Positions 24,004 through 38,920 of a stretch of 64,000 nt of DNA are shown piece by piece. The notes under the pieces were generated by a model. The model searched no databases, was not told the origin of the DNA, and saw only the letters and a list, made by a program, of their open reading frames with translations. The position numbers and the translations under genes are program-made. The stretch is from Coleofasciculus sp. B1-GNL1-01 (GTDB lineage: Bacteria; Cyanobacteriota; Cyanobacteriia; Cyanobacteriales; Coleofasciculaceae): the NCBI GenBank assembly GCA_040220235.1, contig JAVJTO010000013.1. The stretch is one strand, 5' to 3'. The stretch's first letter is position 1. The number at the start of each line of letters is the position of its first letter.

Positions 24004-27315
<3,312 letters not shown>

Positions 27316-29767: not shown

Positions 29768-30157
29768 CTACGCCTCCTTTGAGGAATATTGCCTCAACCA
29801 CTGTGCCAACTCATCTTCAGAGAGTTCCCCCGCCGCCAGCGATCGCATCACCAGCACCACCTCTGGCTCCGGTGCATCCAATTCCCAACTATTCACCTTC
29901 AAAAACACATACATCACCTGAAACGCCGTGCGCTTATTGCCATCAATAAACGGATGATTTCTAGCAATTCCATAGCCATAGTCCGCCGCCAGTCGATAAA
30001 TATCTGCCCCTTCATACCCATAGCGATTACGCGCACGGGCAAGGGCGCTCGCCAGCAACCCCTCATCCCGTAACCCATACACCCCACCATGGGTCGCAAC
30101 TTGATCATCATGAATCACCTGCACCATCGCAGCAGTAATCCAAATCGGTTCAGCCAT
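29768..30157 (-). CDS. doc: Doc (death-on-curing) / Fic-family toxin
   Basis: Fic-Doc motif HPFIDGNKRTA. The Met at 30157 (MAEPIWITAAMV) overlaps the antitoxin stop (ATGGCTGA). The ORF track starts 21 nt further upstream. Confidence 0.85.
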   Translation of the reverse strand: MAEPIWITAAMVQVIHDDQVATHGGVYGLRDEGLLASALARARNRYGYEGADIYRLAADYGYGIARNHPFIDGNKRTAFQVMYVFLKVNSWELDAPEPEVVLVMRSLAAGELSEDELAQWLRQYSSKEA

Positions 30158-30374
30158 CTGCCAACTCTCGCATGGCATTACGATACTGCGACGCCCCCTG
30201 CTTGTAAGCCGCCATCACCTGCTCAAACTCAGGATCATAAGCCATCAACTTAATCCCATCCTCCATCACCACCAGAGTCAGCGTATCCCCTTCCCTCAAA
30301 TTAAATTTGTCCAAGATTTCTTTAGGAAACGTGGTGCCAATGGAGTTGCCCACTTTCCGTAGTTTTATCTCCAT
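30150..30374 (-). CDS. AbrB/MazE/SpoVT-family antitoxin (Phd-equivalent partner of Doc)
   Basis: 74 aa. MEIKLRKVGNSIGTTFPKEILDKFNLREGD is the swapped-hairpin AbrB/MazE motif. It sits immediately upstream of doc and overlaps it. Confidence 0.8.
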   Translation of the reverse strand: MEIKLRKVGNSIGTTFPKEILDKFNLREGDTLTLVVMEDGIKLMAYDPEFEQVMAAYKQGASQYRNAMRELADG

Positions 30375-30514
30375 GATTTAATTCTCCGCTGACGTTATTA
30401 CTATTGTAATCACGCCAATTACCAGACAAGCCAGCCAAAAACGAATCGAGTCCAGTGCGATCGCTCCAACAGCAGCAGCTTGCTACCCCCGTTATAACCT
30501 AGTCCGTGCAGGCA

Positions 30515-33500
30515 TTACAGGTTCGGCGTTGACGTTAGGGGAACACTGTTCCCTGTTTTTTGTTCCCCGTTCCCTACTCTCTGTAAATTCAGTTCTTGGA
30601 AAGGTTCAGATGTGCGGGTTAAAATTAAGGTTAAAGGGTCTACCGATTTACCATTAACGTTTAATTGATAGGTTCCTTGAGTTAGCGATTCTAGATAGTA
30701 AACCCCGGCTGCATTGGTCACTGAAAAAATCCGTTTCCCTGACTCGGTATGAATCGCTTCTACTCTCGCCCCCGCGATCGCACGTCCAGCCGCATCAGTA
30801 ACAACGCCAGAACGGGTATAGGAGGGGATTAGGGGAACGTCAACCGGGGTATAGCTTCCCGCCACGACATCCACCGCATAAGCCGTCTCAGGCGCTTGCC
30901 AATCCACCGGAAAGCCAGCCGGATCAAGGTCGAGGCGATAGGTTCCTGGGGGGAGGCGCATCATGATCCGATCATCTTTAATATCGGGTCGTAATGTGCT
31001 AACCAATTGGCTGTTGAGAATCACTAAATTTGGGTCACTAAATCCTTTTTCAGCGGGGTCTTTTTGACCATTTTGATTGTCGTCGAAAAAGGGTTGAATC
31101 ATCACACCGCCTTGGGTGCGGAGGTAGTTGGTGCGGGCGTCGCCTGCGGTGAGTCCACGTTGTAGATTTAAACTAGAGACTAATTGTACACTAAAACTCG
31201 ATTCATCAGAGGTCGCGGAAATGCCTTGATAACGTCCCCGTACTTGTAAACCGGGGATAATTGTAGTTCCTACTGAAGCAATTAAACCCGAACCACGAGA
31301 ACCAACACCATATCCTAGTTCTGCATCCCACAGAGGAATTCCATTGCGGGATTCTTGATGGGAACGATAGCGCCAGGATAGGGTGGTGAGGTGGTCATTT
31401 TGGCTTTGGTTATAGGTGTCAAGTCCCAAAGCAAGGGAGTGACCTTTGTCAAAATTATTTCTGCCAAAATTATATCGCAGTTCCGATTGAGTATTCACTT
31501 CATTGCCAATCGAACGCAGTTCAAATTGATGGAGACGTTGCCATAAATTCCAACGCAAACGGCTTTCACTATCGAAGGTTACTCGGGCAAAGGTAAAGGC
31601 ATTTTTGCTACTAAAGGCGAATTGTACTCCCCCAGCCGTCCCATTGCGACTATCTGTACTTCCGAGTAAGGTAAAACCTGGAGAGATTTGCCAGGAGAGG
31701 TTGAGTCGATCCGAAAAGCGATCGCGAGTAAAACGGGCGGTAAAATTAGAGGAGGGTTCGTATAAAATATCGGCTAAAATATCGGCGTTAATGTCCCAAT
31801 CGGATTCCTCTGTACCGCTTAAGGCGGAAACCGCAACTTTTAAGGGAAAGCCTTCCGGTTGAAAAAAGACTTCCCCTAATCCCCGCAACGATTCATCGTA
31901 AACCGCACCAACGCCCACCGTTAAACTATTGGATACCCCCCAGCGCCCCAACACACCCCCTTGAAAATTGCTAAAATCGCCCAAAATTCCCGAATCAACG
32001 GCTGATAACTGTCGCCGCCACCCCCCAGAGGCAATAAATGCTGTGGTTCCGGTGGGAATGCGCCCAGGTACATTAGAAAACGTGGCATCCCGAATTTCCG
32101 GTTGTTCGGTGAGGTTCGCTTGAGGATAAAGCAAAACCCGATAATAACCGCCTACGCCTTGAGGGTCAAATTCAATGTTTTCAAAGCGATAAACGCCAGC
32201 GGAATCCACCAAGACTTCGGCAATAATTTGGTCACTTAATCCCTGTACCAATCGCACCAAGGTTCCTGGTTCCGCTTCCCCAGAAATTGTGCGACTCATT
32301 TGCGCCGCTTGTAGGCGTTGATTAGGATTATTTTCCCCATAGAGTTGTAGTTTTGGAATAAACCCTTGGCGCTGAATTGTGGTAAATCCCCAATAATCCC
32401 CAGCACTTTGGCTACGCCAAAAGGGAGGTTGAGATCCCAGAATATAATCAGAGGCATCAGTTTGACGTTGATATTGTACCTCCGCTAGACGCCAGGTTTC
32501 TCGGTCAAAAAAATCCGGCTGATTTGCCCGAATTAACCAACTTCCCCCGAAAATACTGCCAACGGCGGTTAAATTTCCTCGGTAGCTAGGGGAGAGAGTT
32601 TGACTCCCATTGGCATCAATCCGTTGTTCTACAGCCGCCAGAGAAAACCCATTCGCCGCAATGCGGGGTAATCCTTCGGTTTGAATGGGTATACGTTGGG
32701 GGCGGGTGGGATTGCGTTGGTTTAACCACGGTGCGGTTATTTGAATCGCGTATTCGATAATATCAAATTCTACCTCAACTTGGAACAGTTCCTGCACTTG
32801 GGCGACAGAAAACACCAGTCCCAATTGGGGGTCAGTTTGCAGTTTGCTGGGGTTAATTCGCACTGTTTGAACAGAGGAACTTAATTCAATTTGATTATCG
32901 GGTAATACTTTTGTCGTTAATTTCAACGCCCGCACTAGGGCATCATAAGGCAAAAACCATTGGTCAAAATTAATCGCAGCGCTGCCATCTTCTTGTCCTC
33001 GGATTAATAAGCCAGAGACAATGTTGCGTTTATTTACATTTAATCCCACCGGAAAGACTATAAACCCGTCGGGAATTTGTGCCACGGGGGAGAGGGAAGG
33101 GTCAAGGGTTAAGGGTTCAGAGTCAGTGGGTGTGGAGGAGTCACCAGAAGTTGTCGCTAGTTCAGGGATAGATGGTGTCGGTTCAACAATATCATTTTTC
33201 TCATCTTCGTGATTTAGTTTTTGAGTCGGAGGCGGTATAATTTCTGGGGGTACTGGGGGTGCGATCGCGTGATTTAAATTAACCGGATTAGACTCAGGTA
33301 CAGCAAGGGTTTCAGGTTCTATGGCAGGGTTAGAAACACTTACGCCCATGGGAGAACCTAATTGTTCAGTACCAGAATATTCCCTATTAAAAATATTAAC
33401 ATCGGTCGAATAATAGTAACCTGCGCCCTTTCCATGTCCAGATGCTTCTGAGAACTCCGGCGCGTTAGCCACAGAGGATTCAGGCGTGAACTGTTCTGGC

Positions 33501-33661
33501 GGCGTCGGTTTAGCTGAATCTAACGCCTTCTGTGGGGAAGTAGTCGCAGGAATTGAATGGGATTTTAATCCTAAAGATGGTGTTACCTGGGTTGTTTGTT
33601 GAGATAGAGAAAAATTGATAATTGCAGGTGGATGAGGAGGGGGCGTGTGAATCATGATCAA
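30515..33661 (-). CDS. Usher-like outer-membrane assembly protein candidate with carboxypeptidase-regulatory-like domains
   Basis: 1048 aa, positioned after the pilin and chaperone genes. A long stretch of alternating beta-strand-like sequence runs through ...RFSDRLNLSWQISPGFTLLGS...RWNLWQRLHQFELRS...LSWRYRSHQE.... The C-terminal GVVTDAAGRAIAGARVEAIHTESGKRIFSVTNAAGVYYLESL is a CarboxypepD_reg-like motif. The usher call rests on context and composition only. Confidence 0.5.
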   Translation of the reverse strand: MIMIHTPPPHPPAIINFSLSQQTTQVTPSLGLKSHSIPATTSPQKALDSAKPTPPEQFTPESSVANAPEFSEASGHGKGAGYYYSTDVNIFNREYSGTEQLGSPMGVSVSNPAIEPETLAVPESNPVNLNHAIAPPVPPEIIPPPTQKLNHEDEKNDIVEPTPSIPELATTSGDSSTPTDSEPLTLDPSLSPVAQIPDGFIVFPVGLNVNKRNIVSGLLIRGQEDGSAAINFDQWFLPYDALVRALKLTTKVLPDNQIELSSSVQTVRINPSKLQTDPQLGLVFSVAQVQELFQVEVEFDIIEYAIQITAPWLNQRNPTRPQRIPIQTEGLPRIAANGFSLAAVEQRIDANGSQTLSPSYRGNLTAVGSIFGGSWLIRANQPDFFDRETWRLAEVQYQRQTDASDYILGSQPPFWRSQSAGDYWGFTTIQRQGFIPKLQLYGENNPNQRLQAAQMSRTISGEAEPGTLVRLVQGLSDQIIAEVLVDSAGVYRFENIEFDPQGVGGYYRVLLYPQANLTEQPEIRDATFSNVPGRIPTGTTAFIASGGWRRQLSAVDSGILGDFSNFQGGVLGRWGVSNSLTVGVGAVYDESLRGLGEVFFQPEGFPLKVAVSALSGTEESDWDINADILADILYEPSSNFTARFTRDRFSDRLNLSWQISPGFTLLGSTDSRNGTAGGVQFAFSSKNAFTFARVTFDSESRLRWNLWQRLHQFELRSIGNEVNTQSELRYNFGRNNFDKGHSLALGLDTYNQSQNDHLTTLSWRYRSHQESRNGIPLWDAELGYGVGSRGSGLIASVGTTIIPGLQVRGRYQGISATSDESSFSVQLVSSLNLQRGLTAGDARTNYLRTQGGVMIQPFFDDNQNGQKDPAEKGFSDPNLVILNSQLVSTLRPDIKDDRIMMRLPPGTYRLDLDPAGFPVDWQAPETAYAVDVVAGSYTPVDVPLIPSYTRSGVVTDAAGRAIAGARVEAIHTESGKRIFSVTNAAGVYYLESLTQGTYQLNVNGKSVDPLTLILTRTSEPFQELNLQRVGNGEQKTGNSVPLTSTPNL

Positions 33662-33722
33662 AGCAATTTTTCAATTAAAAAATTTTCCAGGAATGACGTA
33701 ATATGGAATATAACCTTCAGGT

Positions 33723-33809
33723 TGTAGAAACCTTGCATGCAACGTCTCTACAATATTTGTGCCGAAATTGTAGAAATTGTAGGGTGCGTTAGCGCAGCGT
33801 AACGCACCA
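33723..33809. repeat. Two palindromic repeats (TGTAGAAACCTTGCATGCAACGTCTCTACA; GGTGCGTTAGCGCAGCGTAACGCACC)
   Basis: Read directly in the chaperone-usher spacer. The second family recurs at 38,771-38,797. Confidence 0.85.
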
Positions 33810-33854
33810 TTAATCTGTAATACTTTACCGCTATCGCCTAACCCTGATTGAATA

Positions 33855-34679
33855 TCAGCTATTTGGAATCGTGAAATTCAGATCAAACGGAATAGAATTG
33901 TTATTCCCCCAGGTTAAGCTTCCCGTGAGTTGATAGTTCCCCGGAGAAAGGGGAGGAAAATCTGGGCTGAAGAGATTTAAAGGCAAATTACGCTTACTTT
34001 CAGCAATAACCGTACTCGGTAGTAAATGACCTGAATGAATCACTCGTTCTCCTTGACTGAGTGACCAATCTACCTTTGCTTGAGTTGAAGCATTCCCCGT
34101 ATTTTGCACTAAAAGTTGCAGTTGATTAATTGTTTGATTAAAGCTGGCATTCTCAACGCTAATATTAGGCATGACATTGCCTTTCCGGATATAGATATTG
34201 GTGGCGACTCGTGTGGTAATCCCCATAAGATTACTCTTCCCCGCCGCTGCTTCATTCAAGGTTTCAGTAAAAATAGCAGCACGATATTCTCCATCGGGAA
34301 GATTCGGTGCAAGTCGTGCGACTAAGCGCACTCGTCGGGTTGTATTCGGCGGAACCGTGAGTTCTCTGGGAGAGAATTGTAGATAAGAACCTAGATAGTT
34401 TGTAATTGAAGGGAGGGTTTCAAATCCTCTATCACTGTAGGTAAAGGGTTCACTATAAATTCTGGCACGTAAGGGAGTATTAGTGGGATTAATTACATTA
34501 ATTACCGCGTCCACTTGACCCCGATTTGCCTGTTCCTCAATGACTAACGGTGAGGCTCCCATTTGGGCTTGAGCAGGAGGTGTTAACCAAAAGGCGGTGG
34601 ATAATGCCAATGTGCCGATTTGTAGGGCTTGAAGAAGACGGCGAGAATACGTCTTGGATTTTTGTAGAGAAAAGACCAT
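33855..34679 (-). CDS. PapD-like periplasmic fimbrial chaperone candidate
   Basis: Signal peptide ending PPAQA|QMG. SPLVIEEQANRGQVDAVINVINPTNTPLRARIY and LQFSPRELTVPPNTTRRVRLVARLAPNLPDGEYRAAIF match the two conserved strand regions of PapD-family chaperones. Two Ig-like halves. Confidence 0.6.
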   Translation of the reverse strand: MVFSLQKSKTYSRRLLQALQIGTLALSTAFWLTPPAQAQMGASPLVIEEQANRGQVDAVINVINPTNTPLRARIYSEPFTYSDRGFETLPSITNYLGSYLQFSPRELTVPPNTTRRVRLVARLAPNLPDGEYRAAIFTETLNEAAAGKSNLMGITTRVATNIYIRKGNVMPNISVENASFNQTINQLQLLVQNTGNASTQAKVDWSLSQGERVIHSGHLLPSTVIAESKRNLPLNLFSPDFPPLSPGNYQLTGSLTWGNNNSIPFDLNFTIPNS

Positions 34680-34728
34680 TTTTCTTATCCTGAAAGGGTT
34701 GATTTATGTCTTGAATTCGAGAAATAAT

Positions 34729-34761
34729 CTAGGGGAAACGTATTCCCTGGATTTCCCCTAG
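34729..34761 (-). terminator. Strong hairpin between the pilin and chaperone genes (possible attenuator / partial terminator)
   Basis: CTAGGGGAAA-N13-TTTCCCCTAG, a 10-bp stem, lies 35 nt after the pilin stop. It is followed on the minus strand by ATTATTTCT. Confidence 0.5.
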
Positions 34762-34795
34762 AATCATCACTCAAAGCTTGGTAGACGCGATTGAT

Positions 34796-35284
34796 TTATA
34801 ACGCTGTAGCGGTCATGGTCACACCGAATTGATAATCACCTGCTGGCAGTACGGTTCCATGATCAGCGCTCATATCAACAGTTAGGTTGGTATCACCTAG
34901 GACTAATGCCCCCGTCGCTACGCCAAGGGTGTCATCTACGGTAATATTTAGTGAGGCAGCTCCTGTACCCGCCACCGTAGCGCTTTTGACGGTAGTGGCG
35001 TCATTGTAATCTACGGGTGCTGTTTTAATTGCTGGAGCATTGACATTTAGCGTTGCGGGTCCAGAACAGGTTACGGTTACGGTACCAGGGGTTGCTCCTG
35101 TGCTGGTCAGGGTACTATTAGTTGGCGCGGTTAATGTGCCATCTACTTTGTTACTGAATGTGCAAGAGTTGGTGACAGTTCCCCCAAATAAAACCTCTAC
35201 GGGGTTGGCTTGAGCGGTTGATACAAATGCTAGAGTGCTGCTGAGAACAACGGCGGAAGCTATTAAAGTTTGACGAATCATCAT
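34796..35284 (-). CDS. Secreted fimbrial-subunit candidate (spore-coat-U / Csu-type pilin-like)
   Basis: Signal peptide ...VSTAQA|NP, a Cys pair (NSCTF ... VTCSG) and Thr/Val-rich beta composition. The C-terminus LPAGDYQFGVTMTATAL resembles the AGxYxxxvTvTv end of SCPU-domain subunits. Confidence 0.6.
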   Translation of the reverse strand: MMIRQTLIASAVVLSSTLAFVSTAQANPVEVLFGGTVTNSCTFSNKVDGTLTAPTNSTLTSTGATPGTVTVTCSGPATLNVNAPAIKTAPVDYNDATTVKSATVAGTGAASLNITVDDTLGVATGALVLGDTNLTVDMSADHGTVLPAGDYQFGVTMTATAL

Positions 35285-35935
35285 TTACTCCTTGAATTGA
35301 TTGAATAAGAACAGTGAAAGGTACACCCTGAACTTGTTTGATTTGTCTGTGTCTGTGCTTGCGTGGGAGTCAGATTTGACTGACAATCACAATTTAACAA
35401 GGCGTCAATGATGGAAAAATCCGCAGGATCTGGTATCTTTTGTCAGTACGTAAGTTCCCCTAATGCTGTACCTACGTAGTCCCTACGTAGACATTTTTAG
35501 GTAAGCCTACTGAGTAGGCGTAGCAGTTTCCAAGTGTATGAAGTACACGCAAGCGAGTATGATGGAGCTTGCTTCTCAAAGGCAGCGAGTTCTCAACCGT
35601 TAACTTTTATTGTCCCTACCTACTTACCTTGATTTGACCCATCGCTAACCCTCCATTTGTCAACCCCACCCTAACCCTTCCCTTATCAAGGGGAGGGAAC
35701 TCGAATGGCTTTGGTTAGGGGGGTTAAGGTTAAGGCAATGAGAGTTCAAACGTCTCACACGGAAAAGCTTTTCACCTTGAATTGGCACGGATGAAAGCTT
35801 GCGCCCCCACCGATTTACTATGCCTGAGGAAGAATACGTCAAGACCGTTGAGCGTATATAATTAGGAACTCGTTGTTTAGATAAAAGAGTCGAAGGTAAT
35901 AAAAGAGCTGCCTAGCTGACTACCCGAATATTGAA

Positions 35936-37081
35936 ATGAGTCATCAACCGATAGAACCCTCAAGCTTAAAGAATGAACAGTGTTTCCGGACAATATTTGA
36001 GGCAAGCCCTCTGGGGATCGCCATAGTAGGATTGAACCAGCACTTCATCAAAGTCAATCCCCTGTTTTGTCAAATTGTGGGTTATTCAGCATCGGAATTA
36101 ACTCAACTCAGGTTTACAGATATCACGCATCCTGATGATCGCAAACTGAGCCTTCAACGTGAACAGCAGCTAAGCCAGGGTAAACTTTCACGCCACCGGA
36201 TTGACAAACGCTACATCCGCAAAGATGGAGAAGTCGTTGAAGTTCATTTGTCGGGGTCTATCATTCGAGATCAACAGAATAACCCCCTCTATTATTTAAA
36301 GATGATTGAGGAAATTAGCGAACGCCAGCAAACTCAGCCTCAAGCCTTACTCAAAGAACAGGAATTCAAGACACTCAAATCTCGCTTTATCGCCAGAGTA
36401 TCCCATGAGTTTCGTACCCCTCTTAGTCAAATTTCCCTGTTTACCCAGTTATTAGAGCGTTACGATGAACGCTGGTCAATTGAGCAAAAAGCTGACTATT
36501 TCCGGCGAATTCACACCTCGATCACATCCATGACCCAATTATTGGATGATGTGCTGTTTATCGGCAAAGCCGACGCTGAAAAGGTGAGAAGTACCACAAA
36601 ACTATTTGATCTGGCAAGCTTTTTGGAGAGGATGATCACTGAAGTCCAACAGCGAACGCAGCAGAAATGCTCGATTCAATGGCGCAATCCCAGCTTCAGC
36701 CTACCCGTCTATCTCGATCCCACCCTCGTTGAGCGTATCATGATCAATTTACTCGATAATGCGGTTAAATATTCCGTTTCAGGAGATACAGTATATATAG
36801 GCTTAACCCGTGATCATGAACAGGTGACTCTCCAAATCCAAGACCAAGGGATTGGTATCCCTGCTGAAGACTTGCCATACCTGTTTGAATCGTTCCATCG
36901 CGGCAAAAATATCGGGAACCGTCCGGGTACAGGTTTGGGATTGACGATTGTTAAGCAGTGTGTGGACGTACAGCAGGGACAGATTGAAATCACCAGTGAA
37001 ATCGGGGTTGGTACAACTGTCACTCTTATCTTTCCTGTAACCTCCTGGAATTCTAGTCATGATCAAGATTTTGGTAATTGA
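35936..37081 (+). CDS. PAS-domain sensor histidine kinase
   Basis: PAS region (FRTIFEASPLGIAIV...), H-box SHEFRTPLS, N box LLDNAVKYS, and G boxes DQGIGI and GTGLGLTIV. Confidence 0.9.
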   Translation: MSHQPIEPSSLKNEQCFRTIFEASPLGIAIVGLNQHFIKVNPLFCQIVGYSASELTQLRFTDITHPDDRKLSLQREQQLSQGKLSRHRIDKRYIRKDGEVVEVHLSGSIIRDQQNNPLYYLKMIEEISERQQTQPQALLKEQEFKTLKSRFIARVSHEFRTPLSQISLFTQLLERYDERWSIEQKADYFRRIHTSITSMTQLLDDVLFIGKADAEKVRSTTKLFDLASFLERMITEVQQRTQQKCSIQWRNPSFSLPVYLDPTLVERIMINLLDNAVKYSVSGDTVYIGLTRDHEQVTLQIQDQGIGIPAEDLPYLFESFHRGKNIGNRPGTGLGLTIVKQCVDVQQGQIEITSEIGVGTTVTLIFPVTSWNSSHDQDFGN

Positions 37082-37754
37082 AGATGATGATAACTTGCGG
37101 GCGGGTATGTTGGCATTACTGGAAGCTGAACAATTCCAAGCCTTCGGTGCAGAAAATGGTCGAGTGGGTTTGGAGTTGGTGCGACAACATTTACCCGATG
37201 TGATTATTTGCGATATCATGATGCCAGATTTAGATGGGTATGGCACTCTACAAGCGCTCAAACAAGACCCAGTAATGGCTCAAATTCCGTTCATCTTCTT
37301 AACCGCTTTAACCGATCGCGTGGATATGCGTCAAGGGATGGAATTGGGGGCGGATGATTTTTTAACCAAACCCTACAGTATCGACGAACTGCTCAACGCT
37401 ATCGCCTCAGTTCTAGGTAAACAGGCAATCCATCAGCAGCGTACCACAAGCGAACGCGATCGCGCCGAGTCCCTCCAACAACAATTACAGGCGCTGCAAG
37501 AAATTAGTGCGACGAAAGATGATCTGTTAGAAAAATTATTGGAAGATTTGGCAGATCCAATATCTACCATCACAATAACGATTGAATTGCTAGAGTCAGC
37601 CCCCACCGAACCCCGTCGTCAGGTCTATTTGAAAAGTTTACGAGAAGAATTTAATCGTCAAGTTGAACTGATTAATCAAGTGGCTGAACTGAAAAAACTA
37701 CTCACACCGGAAAATATTAAACTCTTGCGTAAACTTCCCCTGCTGAAGCGATGA
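37059..37754 (+). CDS. Response regulator: REC domain fused to a His-less DHp-like helical domain
   Basis: REC is ILVIEDDDNLR...ICDIMMPDLDG...TKP. The C-terminal LLEKLLEDLADPISTITITIELL aligns with an H-box (fxSHELRTPLTxI) but has E in place of His. There is no ATPase domain. It overlaps the upstream HK by 23 nt. Confidence 0.85.
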   Translation: MIKILVIEDDDNLRAGMLALLEAEQFQAFGAENGRVGLELVRQHLPDVIICDIMMPDLDGYGTLQALKQDPVMAQIPFIFLTALTDRVDMRQGMELGADDFLTKPYSIDELLNAIASVLGKQAIHQQRTTSERDRAESLQQQLQALQEISATKDDLLEKLLEDLADPISTITITIELLESAPTEPRRQVYLKSLREEFNRQVELINQVAELKKLLTPENIKLLRKLPLLKR

Positions 37755-37808
37755 AAAACACCATCGGTAGGACGTCGTACTCTGATTTCGATGACTGTGG
37801 TACACTAG

Positions 37809-38468
37809 ATGATCGACAATGAATGCAGTGGTTCCCAACAATTCATAGTTTATCTAAATCATTCAGATTTCGTGCTGTTATTAATTAGCGATTATCCCAA
37901 CTTTTTAACTACCGCCAAAGACTATTTGCAAGACCAAGGCAACTATCAAGTCACTGCCTTCAGCAATTATCAGGATGTTTTGCCGATGCTATCGAGTGGT
38001 CTTCCTGATTGCATTATCGGTGATCTGAGGGGGCGACATCAAGAGAGTTATGCATTCGTCAAATCCCTTCGAGACAATCCGCGCACTCGTTCCATTCCCT
38101 TCATTTTCCTGCATTCCCCAAACGGACTACCGGACTCGATTCAGGCTTTAAGTGCAGGGTGCGATCGCTATCTGATGAAACCCTTTTTACCGAAAAATTT
38201 ACTCACCGAAATAAAAACGGCTCTCAGCTCAATTGTGACAATTCAACCGACTCAAGAATTGAGTTCCCCAGTCAATGATAGCGTGCGCTTAACGCCTACG
38301 GAAAAAAAAGTTCTCGCTTTAATTGTGCAAGGGCTATCGAATCGGGAAATTGCCGCGAACCTCTCAATCAGCCTGCGTACCGCCGAAACCCATGTCAGCA
38401 ATATTTTGGGCAAAACGGGATTACCTAATCGGACTAAACTTGCAGCCTGGGCGTTAGGTGAACATTGA
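37809..38468 (+). CDS. LuxR/NarL-family response regulator
   Basis: REC-like domain (IIGDL...MKPF) plus a C-terminal HTH, LTPTEKKVLALIVQGLSNREIAANLSISLRTAETHVSNILGK. Confidence 0.85.
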   Translation: MIDNECSGSQQFIVYLNHSDFVLLLISDYPNFLTTAKDYLQDQGNYQVTAFSNYQDVLPMLSSGLPDCIIGDLRGRHQESYAFVKSLRDNPRTRSIPFIFLHSPNGLPDSIQALSAGCDRYLMKPFLPKNLLTEIKTALSSIVTIQPTQELSSPVNDSVRLTPTEKKVLALIVQGLSNREIAANLSISLRTAETHVSNILGKTGLPNRTKLAAWALGEH

Positions 38469-38764: not shown

Positions 38765-38920
38765 TTATATGGTGCGTTACGCTATCGCTAACGCACCCTA
38801 CATATAGAACATATAGAGCCTTTGCGTTAGTTCTCAGGTGTGCCACGCCAGTAGGTTTTGACGTTTCACGGGAGCTAGGGCGGTAGAATAGCAGGATGCC
38901 CTCAACTTGATAGATATCCC

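Follow-up and report, generated by a model that had tools for sequence, protein, structure and literature searches.

The 64,000-nucleotide stretch of Coleofasciculus sp. B1-GNL1-01 contig JAVJTO010000013.1 analyzed here (the window) carries three adjacent minus-strand genes that, judging from predicted structures and remote sequence relationships, very probably constitute a chaperone-usher assembly module building a thin, homopolymeric surface fibre. By descent, it is a distant relation of the archaic (sigma, Csu/SCPU) systems, confined to cyanobacteria, and its usher sequence has diverged beyond recognition. The three co-directional open reading frames (ORFs) have limits of exactly 30515-35284 in the ORF list of the window and encode subunit A, the putative pilin (34796..35284, minus strand; 162 aa, ATG start), chaperone B, a PapD-like and presumptively periplasmic protein (33855..34679, minus strand; 274 aa), and usher C, a predicted outer-membrane protein (30515..33661, minus strand; 1048 aa counted from a TTG at 33661, the true start probably being the ATG at 33655, two codons inside the TTG). 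Each of the three genes is present in a single copy in the window. An initial annotation, made from the letters and ORF list, had proposed at these limits a secreted SCPU/Csu-like subunit, a PapD-like two-lobed chaperone and a 1048-residue beta-rich protein in the usher position, and had named a PapD Ig-like fold of the middle gene and a plugged barrel in the large protein as the structural features to look for. The three assignments are supported by the analysis, and both folds are present in the AlphaFold2 models. The module is recognized from predicted folds, remote homology of the subunit and chaperone to sigma-type proteins, sequence motifs and a conserved gene order.

Predicted structure of the usher

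Usher C has several hundred cyanobacterial homologues, annotated either as "carboxypeptidase regulatory-like domain-containing protein" or as hypothetical, and an exhaustive hidden Markov model (HMM) search delineated the family with 202 representatives at E 1e-30 or better. An AlphaFold2 model of residues 190-1048, computed with 67 sequences, is of good quality (predicted local distance difference test score, pLDDT, 81.8) and is predicted to have the fold of an usher. The domain layout, taken from the DSSP string of this model, comprises a mixed N-terminal domain (about residues 200-315; 1-125 in model numbering), six long barrel strands (about residues 339-432; model 150-243), a small six-stranded plug domain (about residues 446-525; model 257-336), the remainder of the barrel with about 18-20 long strands (about residues 540-832; model 351-643) and two C-terminal beta-sandwich domains (about residues 851-935 and 937-1029; model 662-745 and 748-840), the second of which carries a CarboxypepD_reg Pfam match. 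These domains are preceded by a variable extension (about residues 1-195) that is Pro/Ser/Thr-rich, not conserved and without a signal peptide. We take this layout to be that of FimD, with the same domain order, the plug placed after barrel strand 6 and closely similar boundaries. In Foldseek searches against the PDB, the top 18 matches are all FimD or PapC (E 1.2e-22 to 4.8e-10, up to 939 aligned columns); these are followed by unrelated Ig-domain proteins and then by porins, with porins and TonB-dependent receptors alike reaching only E 1e-5 or weaker.

At the sequence level the family is isolated. The Pfam matches of usher C are limited to CarboxypepD_reg (951-1011) and a weak Big_6 (451-493), and no Usher domain appears in the precomputed domain lists of the homologues. 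The family profile retrieves only spurious designed-propeller repeats from the PDB. Whole-alignment hhalign comparisons with sigma, classical and Ecp ushers give nothing significant (<=12%), and those made domain by domain against sigma ushers stay at <=9%. The 150 matches listed from the exhaustive HMM search are all family members or fragments, with no bridge to canonical ushers among them.

We also noted a Pleurocapsales family of ~460-500-aa hypothetical proteins, named in Xenococcus and Stanieria, whose similarity to the usher is confined to the C-terminal two thirds of the barrel (E 1e-52 to 1e-70). Its members (P0362, encoded at L088:6001-7431, and P0353, P0360, P0365, P0368, P0369, P0372 and P0376) are stand-alone proteins of ~470 aa without a Pfam domain, and the single gene whose surroundings were inspected has neither a chaperone nor a subunit gene close by.

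The chaperone and its putative anchor residues

Chaperone B begins with a signal peptide, cleaved between PPAQAQ and MG, which is followed by two Ig-like lobes (about residues 41-166 and 173-271). Its AlphaFold2 model is confident, two-lobed and all-beta (pLDDT 88.9), with a long, flexible, low-confidence F1-G1 loop (141-156) between the strands 130-140 and 157-166. Foldseek alignments spanning both lobes (230-260 columns for CsuC, CfaA, FimC, PapD and Caf1M) relate it to the chaperones CfaA, CsuC, YadV, FimC, CupB2, Caf1M and PapD at E 1e-10 to 1e-8; slightly ahead of these, the best matches are WxLIP proteins of the Gram-positive Enterococcus (E 1e-12), which are likewise two-Ig-domain proteins (PMC10599100). 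About 100 close homologues were recovered, all of those with an organism name being cyanobacterial. Many are already called "P pilus assembly protein, chaperone PapD" by NCBI, and their precomputed domain lists contain no PapD Pfam domain in any case.

Searched against all PDB sequences, a 49-sequence profile of the chaperone family retrieves only CsuC (E 0.002) and EcpB (E 0.008). Arg133, which lies in the predicted F1 strand (130-140, "GEYRA"), is invariant in the 49 sequences and is aligned in both the HMM and hhalign alignments with Arg89 of CsuC ("SYRLIVDELP"), the super-conserved anchor of the subunit C-terminal carboxylate in non-classical chaperones (PMC4654587). R230 and Y249 are further invariant residues in the second domain (D2) of these 49 sequences and might substitute for the CsuC D2 anchors.

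The subunit family

Subunit A has a Sec-type signal peptide with cleavage after AQA (STAQA followed by NPVEV), two cysteines (C41 and C73) and the C-terminus LPAGDYQFGVTMTATAL, which contains an AGDY...TMTATAL strand. It is fast-evolving, with only four close relatives by direct search, and the family was gathered by synteny, giving 134 distinct sequences. Scattered weak fimbrial Pfam matches occur among these, and the family profile retrieves nothing from the PDB. In 98 of the 134 members and 19 of the 21 sigma references, G-x-[YFW] stands 12 residues from the C-terminus, as expected if the tail has to bring its terminal carboxylate to a set point in the chaperone cleft. A cysteine pair is invariant in the SCPU pilin domain (PMC4654587, Fig. 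1). At the columns of C41 and C73, both cysteines are present in 94/134 sequences, neither in 40/134 and one alone in none, a covariation that points to a disulfide and hence to an extracytoplasmic protein. The Cys-less subunits carry A/V with S/T instead and usually come from the gene that opens a locus with several subunits.

In 107 family members the stretch between the cleavage site and the first Cys is exactly 14 residues long, and its logo reads Q-S/T-V-D-V-P-F-S/T-G-T-V, with alternate hydrophobics and Gly/Ala in the fourth slot. The corresponding segment of subunit A, NPVEVLFGGTVTNS, has the V-x-F-x-G-x-V donor-strand pattern, reading NPVEVLFGGTVTNSC in the window. The same pattern also precedes the first Cys in FimA, SfmA, ElfA, YraH, FimI and FimG. 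In the type 1 and P pilins this N-terminal segment is the donor strand, with a conserved P4 glycine. In 15 multi-subunit loci, one paralogue has only 1-6 residues between the cleavage site and the Cys, and it is always the product of the gene adjoining the chaperone (e.g., L077:7500-7955, L050:7501-7950, L063:7501-7950, L060:7533-7982 and L070:7486-7956); lacking the N-terminal segment, this paralogue is a candidate single-domain distal tip or initiator subunit. The clade of the window (loci L001-L012) has a single subunit with the N-terminal strand present, from which a homopolymer is predicted.

Profile-profile comparison with known chaperone-usher clades

We compared the three families with reference alignments by means of hhalign, after removal of signal peptides for the subunit and chaperone families and with whole alignments for the ushers. 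The sigma reference comprised Acinetobacter csu and plasmid loci of Klebsiella, Novosphingobium, Burkholderia, Sphingomonas and Acinetobacter, its CsuA/B and CupE1 sequences having been checked against the PDB; the classical reference comprised the fim, sfm, elf and yra loci of E. coli K-12, and the alternative reference its ecp locus. Against the sigma type, the subunit family aligns at 93.8% (E 1.7e-7, 124 columns) with an SCPU pilin set that is small (21 sequences), the reciprocal comparison giving 88.1%, with both Cys positions and the C-terminal G-x-Y...T.T strand in register; the chaperone family aligns at 91.3% and the usher family at 12%. The corresponding values are 1.4%, 13.5% and 3% against the classical type and 0.1%, 59.3% and 0.5% against Ecp, and sigma and classical alignments match each other at 47.1% for subunits and 88.7% for chaperones.

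The subunit link scores 45.8, as against <=15.5 for 40 column shuffles and 12.2 for the reversed alignment, and six other beta-sandwich alignments reach <=6%; the chaperone link scores 50.8, with shuffles at <=25.8. A single CsuA/B template gives 2.5% against the subunit family, and the link is visible only with the 21-sequence SCPU alignment. PDB profile searches with the three families retrieve no classical chaperone, pilin or usher, and single-sequence phmmer searches of the three proteins against the PDB return nothing meaningful. By these profiles the subunit and chaperone emerge as remote relatives of the sigma type, and the usher is recognizable only by its predicted fold. An apparent kinship between subunit and chaperone, suggested by an iterated subunit HMM that recruited chaperones at E 1e-15 to 1e-4 in round 2, was rejected: the similarity drops to 3.5% once signal peptides are removed, and the recruitment is therefore probably a signal-peptide artefact.

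Conserved gene order in cyanobacteria

A scan of one genome per species revealed relatives of chaperone B in 213 species-level genomes, from which 80 loci were used for the synteny counts. All 80 are cyanobacterial; most belong to Nostocales or Coleofasciculaceae, a few bear the label Chroococcales, and the carriers are mostly sheathed or mat-forming filamentous forms; some genomes carry two or more loci. The chaperone gene (80/80) is preceded on the same strand by subunit genes in 71/80 loci (135 genes, one to seven per locus) and followed on its 3' side by the usher gene in 70/80, the loci without a subunit or usher gene being cut by contig ends. This arrangement is far beyond chance. All-against-all clustering identified no fourth conserved gene family in the 80 loci. 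In particular, the window contains no two-domain CsuE-like tip adhesin gene, and the 80 loci share no family of this kind, whereas a two-domain tip adhesin gene follows the usher in 5/6 annotated sigma reference operons.

Individual loci show further variation. A Rivularia locus (L077) has seven tandem subunit genes; another locus has a second, inverted chaperone gene 1.5 kb 5' of the main one (L080:5588-6415, minus strand); and the Calothrix contig CAXTCQ010000090.1 bears two complete modules a few kb apart (L058 and L070).

Proposed assembly mechanism

The chaperone-usher mechanism is the familiar one, and from the above features we infer donor-strand complementation and exchange, a fibre and a role for it. 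The subunit and chaperone would be exported by Sec, and in the periplasm the chaperone G1 strand would complete the presumably incomplete Ig-like fold of the subunit, with the invariant Arg133 of the chaperone gripping the fixed-length subunit C-terminus. The chaperone-subunit complex would dock on the periplasmic N-terminal domain of the usher, where the N-terminal strand of the incoming subunit (14 residues, V-x-F-x-G-x-V) would displace the chaperone strand in donor-strand exchange. With the plug displaced, the growing polymer would exit through the usher barrel, and the two usher C-terminal domains would hold the most recently added subunit. The resulting fibre would probably serve in adhesion or in the bundling of filaments in mats.

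Objections and alternative explanations

Several observations weigh against the interpretation as a chaperone-usher module. Usher C lacks a Sec signal peptide: over its first 200 residues, 11-residue hydropathy peaks at 1.04, and a TGA stop four codons 5' of the first usher start closes the frame, which rules out a longer usher reading frame. We rejected a hidden signal peptide on account of this closed frame and of the overlapping 26-aa upstream ORF (33658-33738), which is not signal-peptide-like. About one third of the usher homologues likewise lack a signal peptide, as against about two thirds with textbook signal peptides, and its absence is an oddity for an outer-membrane barrel. The number of barrel strands (about 24-26) was counted from the DSSP string rather than from coordinates. 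Moreover, the same small alignments that place the usher family at <=12% with either clade join the sigma to the classical ushers at 99.9% (E 6e-32), so that it is in the predicted fold alone that usher homology is seen. As for the other components, the profile matches on which the initial annotation had relied as a check did not materialize: Pfam (E up to 10) and NCBIfam searches of the three window proteins detect no SCPU, PapD_N, PapD_C or Usher match, and the Pfam SCPU model finds only 4 of the 134 subunits, below threshold (best E 0.008). The last subunit residue is Pro in 101/134 sequences, whereas sigma pilins end in an aromatic residue. Finally, the CsuC domain-2 anchors Tyr196 and Arg174 are not evidently conserved in the HMM alignment of the chaperone family.

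The state of the usher N-terminus raises the question of whether the copy in the window is decaying or silent, its usher having lost the export signal and the module assembling nothing. The absence of any hydrophobic segment from the first 200 residues, set against the clear signal peptides of about two thirds of the homologues, speaks for this, as does the lack of a convincing promoter. We nevertheless hold it to be quite improbable, given that all three ORFs are intact and that a near-identical copy (96-97%) is present in another sample. Furthermore, the usher C N-terminus is conserved and Pro-rich (MIHTPPPHPPAII...), giving way to the ~190-residue low-complexity extension, which across the family varies from 19 to more than 500 residues. 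Ushers without a signal peptide come from Coleofasciculus, Nostoc, Lyngbya, Trichocoleus and Fischerella-type strains and have Pro-rich N-termini such as MF.xxPP.xPPAI; the form M-x-x-x-PP-x-x-PP-A/E-I is kept across Coleofasciculus, Nostoc, Lyngbya and Trichocoleus ushers that are only 53-62% identical overall, a conservation that argues for selection and against decay. A more radical alternative is that there is no assembly system at all, usher C being a porin- or transporter-like barrel with Ig-like domains and A and B unrelated secreted Ig-fold proteins, as in a WxL/WxLIP-like surface complex. It could account for the Enterococcus WxLIP proteins as best structural matches of B (E 1e-12), for the want of a sequence link between C and ushers, for the barrel that C has in common with the stand-alone ~470-aa proteins, which have no chaperone or subunit gene nearby, and for the missing signal peptide in the lineage of the window. 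Such a view is very improbable in the face of the full usher domain order of the model, including the plug after strand 6 and the two C-terminal domains, with ushers as its 18 best structural matches; the profile links of A and B are specific to sigma-type pilins and chaperones, with nothing else tested giving a comparable link, the subunit has a donor-strand-like N-terminus and a fixed-length C-terminus, and the gene order is strictly conserved.

A different kind of alternative retains the machinery and changes its product, from discrete adhesive fibres to an amorphous coat, capsule or sheath layer, as with the Yersinia Caf1 capsule and the Myxococcus spore-coat protein U system. The locus in the window has one subunit gene and no adhesin, and capsule-like polymers are the product of chaperone-usher systems with a single subunit, Caf1 among them. 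The prevalence of sheathed and mat-forming filamentous cyanobacteria among the carriers would also agree with a coat, as would the fact that the nearest sequence relatives are SCPU proteins, named after the spore coat component (for the Myxococcus system, see PMC3610870). Sequence alone cannot tell a pilus from a coat; however, the structurally characterized SCPU systems, Csu and CupE, form thin pili (PMC4654587, PMC10104325), and many related loci have two to seven subunit paralogues, one class of which lacks the N-terminal strand, as would befit an ordered fibre with a defined tip. On balance, we consider a coat unlikely and favor the thin fibre.

Comparison with characterized systems

The gene order of subunit(s), chaperone and usher is that of the sigma pili, namely Acinetobacter baumannii CsuA/B-A-B-C-D-E and Pseudomonas aeruginosa CupE. 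Like sigma pilins, the subunits are about 135 residues long when mature and have an N-terminal strand with a Cys after it, a second Cys in a "V.V.C" context and a G-x-Y placed 12 residues from the C-terminus; the chaperones have in common with their sigma counterparts the blocks "SPP..pG..RL", "YR...E" and "R(Y/V)..P(L/V)(F/Y)" and an invariant equivalent of Arg89. Unlike in sigma systems, the window proteins escape the Pfam and NCBIfam models, the usher is unrecognizable by sequence and has the variable Pro-rich N-terminal extension, and no two-domain tip adhesin gene follows it. The cyanobacterial subunits further differ in ending in Pro rather than Phe/Tyr/Trp, in lacking both cysteines in 30% of cases and in an N-terminal strand that bears the classical-type V-x-F-x-G-x-V motif. 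Hence, the label of an archaic sigma-type operon given in the initial annotation stands for the subunit and chaperone, by their profile links, and has to be qualified in view of the failure of the Pfam models, the usher without sequence similarity and the missing CsuE-like tip adhesin gene.

Chaperone-usher genes of cyanobacteria have been discussed before, in Synechocystis (CccS, CccP and Slr0019) and in clusters of Nodularia (PMC4390875, bioRxiv 10.1101/130278, PMC5853447, PMC3610870). In Synechocystis, export of CccS to the cell surface depends on CccP (PMC4390875) and mutants lose adhesion (bioRxiv 10.1101/130278). The system of Synechocystis sp. PCC 6803 (CccS/Slr1667, CccP/Slr1668 and Slr0019) resembles the present one in being cyanobacterial and in having the same three functional roles; it differs in that its usher gene is unlinked, whereas all three genes are adjacent here, and in having a SYCRP1 site at its operon, whereas no CRP-like site was found upstream here. 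The Synechocystis and Nodularia proteins match the SCPU (PF05229), PapD_N (PF00345) and Usher (PF00577) models (PMC4390875, PMC5853447), and the window proteins do not; set apart in this way by the published descriptions of those canonical sigma-type systems, the present family is distinct from them and more divergent. The claim that chaperone-usher assembly is essentially uncharacterized in cyanobacteria calls for qualification in view of these canonical sigma clusters; for the family described here, full-text literature searches found no study.

With the classical pili of E. coli (type 1, FimA-I-C-D-F-G-H, and P pili), the module has in common the predicted fold and domain order of the usher (FimD, PapC), the chaperone fold (FimC, PapD) and a donor-strand-like Gly motif equivalent to the N-terminal segments of FimA and FimG, but subunit, chaperone and usher have no profile-profile similarity to their classical counterparts. 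The E. coli common pilus (EcpA-B-C-D-E, the "alternative" type) is linked through EcpB, the second and only other PDB match of the chaperone profile, through non-classical chaperone features common to both (as described in PMC4654587) and through the 59.3% hhalign match to EcpB/EcpE; however, no relationship connects the subunit with EcpA or the usher with EcpC, and there is neither a second chaperone nor a polymerized adhesin gene here. The Microcystis CT pilus is another cyanobacteria-specific, beta-rich surface fibre for which an outer-membrane protein has been proposed as assembly platform (PMC12397347). Its cluster encodes a pilin, a pilin-like protein, an O-GlcNAc transferase, an FkbM methyltransferase, an adhesin and a cell-surface protein, and no PapD-like chaperone (PMC12397347). 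We rejected identity with this system on gene content, as none of the CT genes is found in the neighbourhood within the window or conserved in the related loci.

Genomic context of the module

In keeping with the initial annotation, the host is a cyanobacterium of the Coleofasciculus type. What we take, from its sequence, to be an ApcE-like phycobilisome linker gene lies 3 kb from the locus (24004-27309), and a Coleofasciculus sp. metagenome-assembled genome encodes a hypothetical protein with 100% identity to subunit A; it is on these two grounds that the host is assigned. The base composition of the three-gene locus equals that of the flanking DNA. An AAGGAG Shine-Dalgarno sequence stands just 5' of the subunit A start. 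Promoter and terminator scans of the locus gave scores no better than shuffled sequences, with no convincing promoter, and no Rfam family matched within 30000-36200; nor was a CRP/SYCRP1-like site detected upstream of the operon.

The chaperone-usher spacer contains a hairpin with a perfect 9-bp stem (33783..33808, minus strand; GGTGCGTTA cgctgcgc TAACGCACC, as a whole GGTGCGTTAcgctgcgcTAACGCACC), which may lower usher expression relative to that of the subunit and chaperone. As a whole it is unique in the window; its 3' half with the flank (GCGCTAACGCACCCTAC) is repeated with one mismatch at 38785-38801 (plus strand), 5 kb away, and in light of this partial copy the hairpin may belong to a small repeat dispersed in the genome and not be specific to the operon. 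The spacer is of variable length among related loci and is not conserved. At 35650-35760 (minus strand), in the long spacer 5' of the subunit gene, a G/C-rich inverted stretch, CCCCTCCCCTTGATAAGGGAAGGGTTAGGGTGGGG, lies inside a spurious 60-aa ORF and looks like a repeat element.

Across a 651-bp spacer from the operon, divergently oriented genes at 35936-38468 (plus strand) encode a PAS histidine kinase, a receiver protein with a HisKA-like tail and a LuxR-type response regulator. Comparable two-component genes are found close to only 8-9 of the related loci, the nearest ones, and their positions vary; we accordingly rejected them as a conserved part of the module. On the other side, 140 bp 3' of the usher gene and on the same strand, a MazE/AbrB-type antitoxin gene overlaps a Fic/Doc toxin gene (29768-30374, minus strand); this pair is absent from all related loci and hence falls outside the chaperone-usher module.

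Implications

In existing annotations of this system the chaperone homologues already figure as PapD-like; the usher and the subunits had gone unrecognized. There is a real, if somewhat less than even, chance that the family represents a clade of its own within the chaperone-usher superfamily, confined to cyanobacteria and distinct from the six already described, with a fibre on mat-forming, sheathed filamentous cyanobacteria; its hallmarks would be an usher past all models with a variable Pro-rich extension, Pro-ending pilins and single-domain tip subunits without a donor strand. If this is true, one lineage without a Sec signal on its usher would imply an unusual export route or topology, and on any account the usher lineage lacking a signal peptide is a small puzzle in outer-membrane protein targeting. 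The family widens the known sequence range of ushers, and profile-based surveys of secretion systems are likely to miss it.

In filamentous mat-building cyanobacteria, the surface structures beyond type IV pili are poorly understood, and such structures underlie bundling, sheath formation, adhesion and gliding. More than 200 species carry the module; multiple copies per genome are frequent, as many as seven subunit paralogues occur, and among its components only the chaperone is meaningfully annotated. Reading the "carboxypeptidase regulatory-like domain protein" as the usher makes the locus a candidate, open to testing, for a cyanobacterial fibre of a new class, with small hypothetical proteins as its pilins, and its culturable carriers include Chlorogloeopsis fritschii PCC 6912, Calothrix PCC 7103, Fischerella PCC 9431 and several Nostoc strains.

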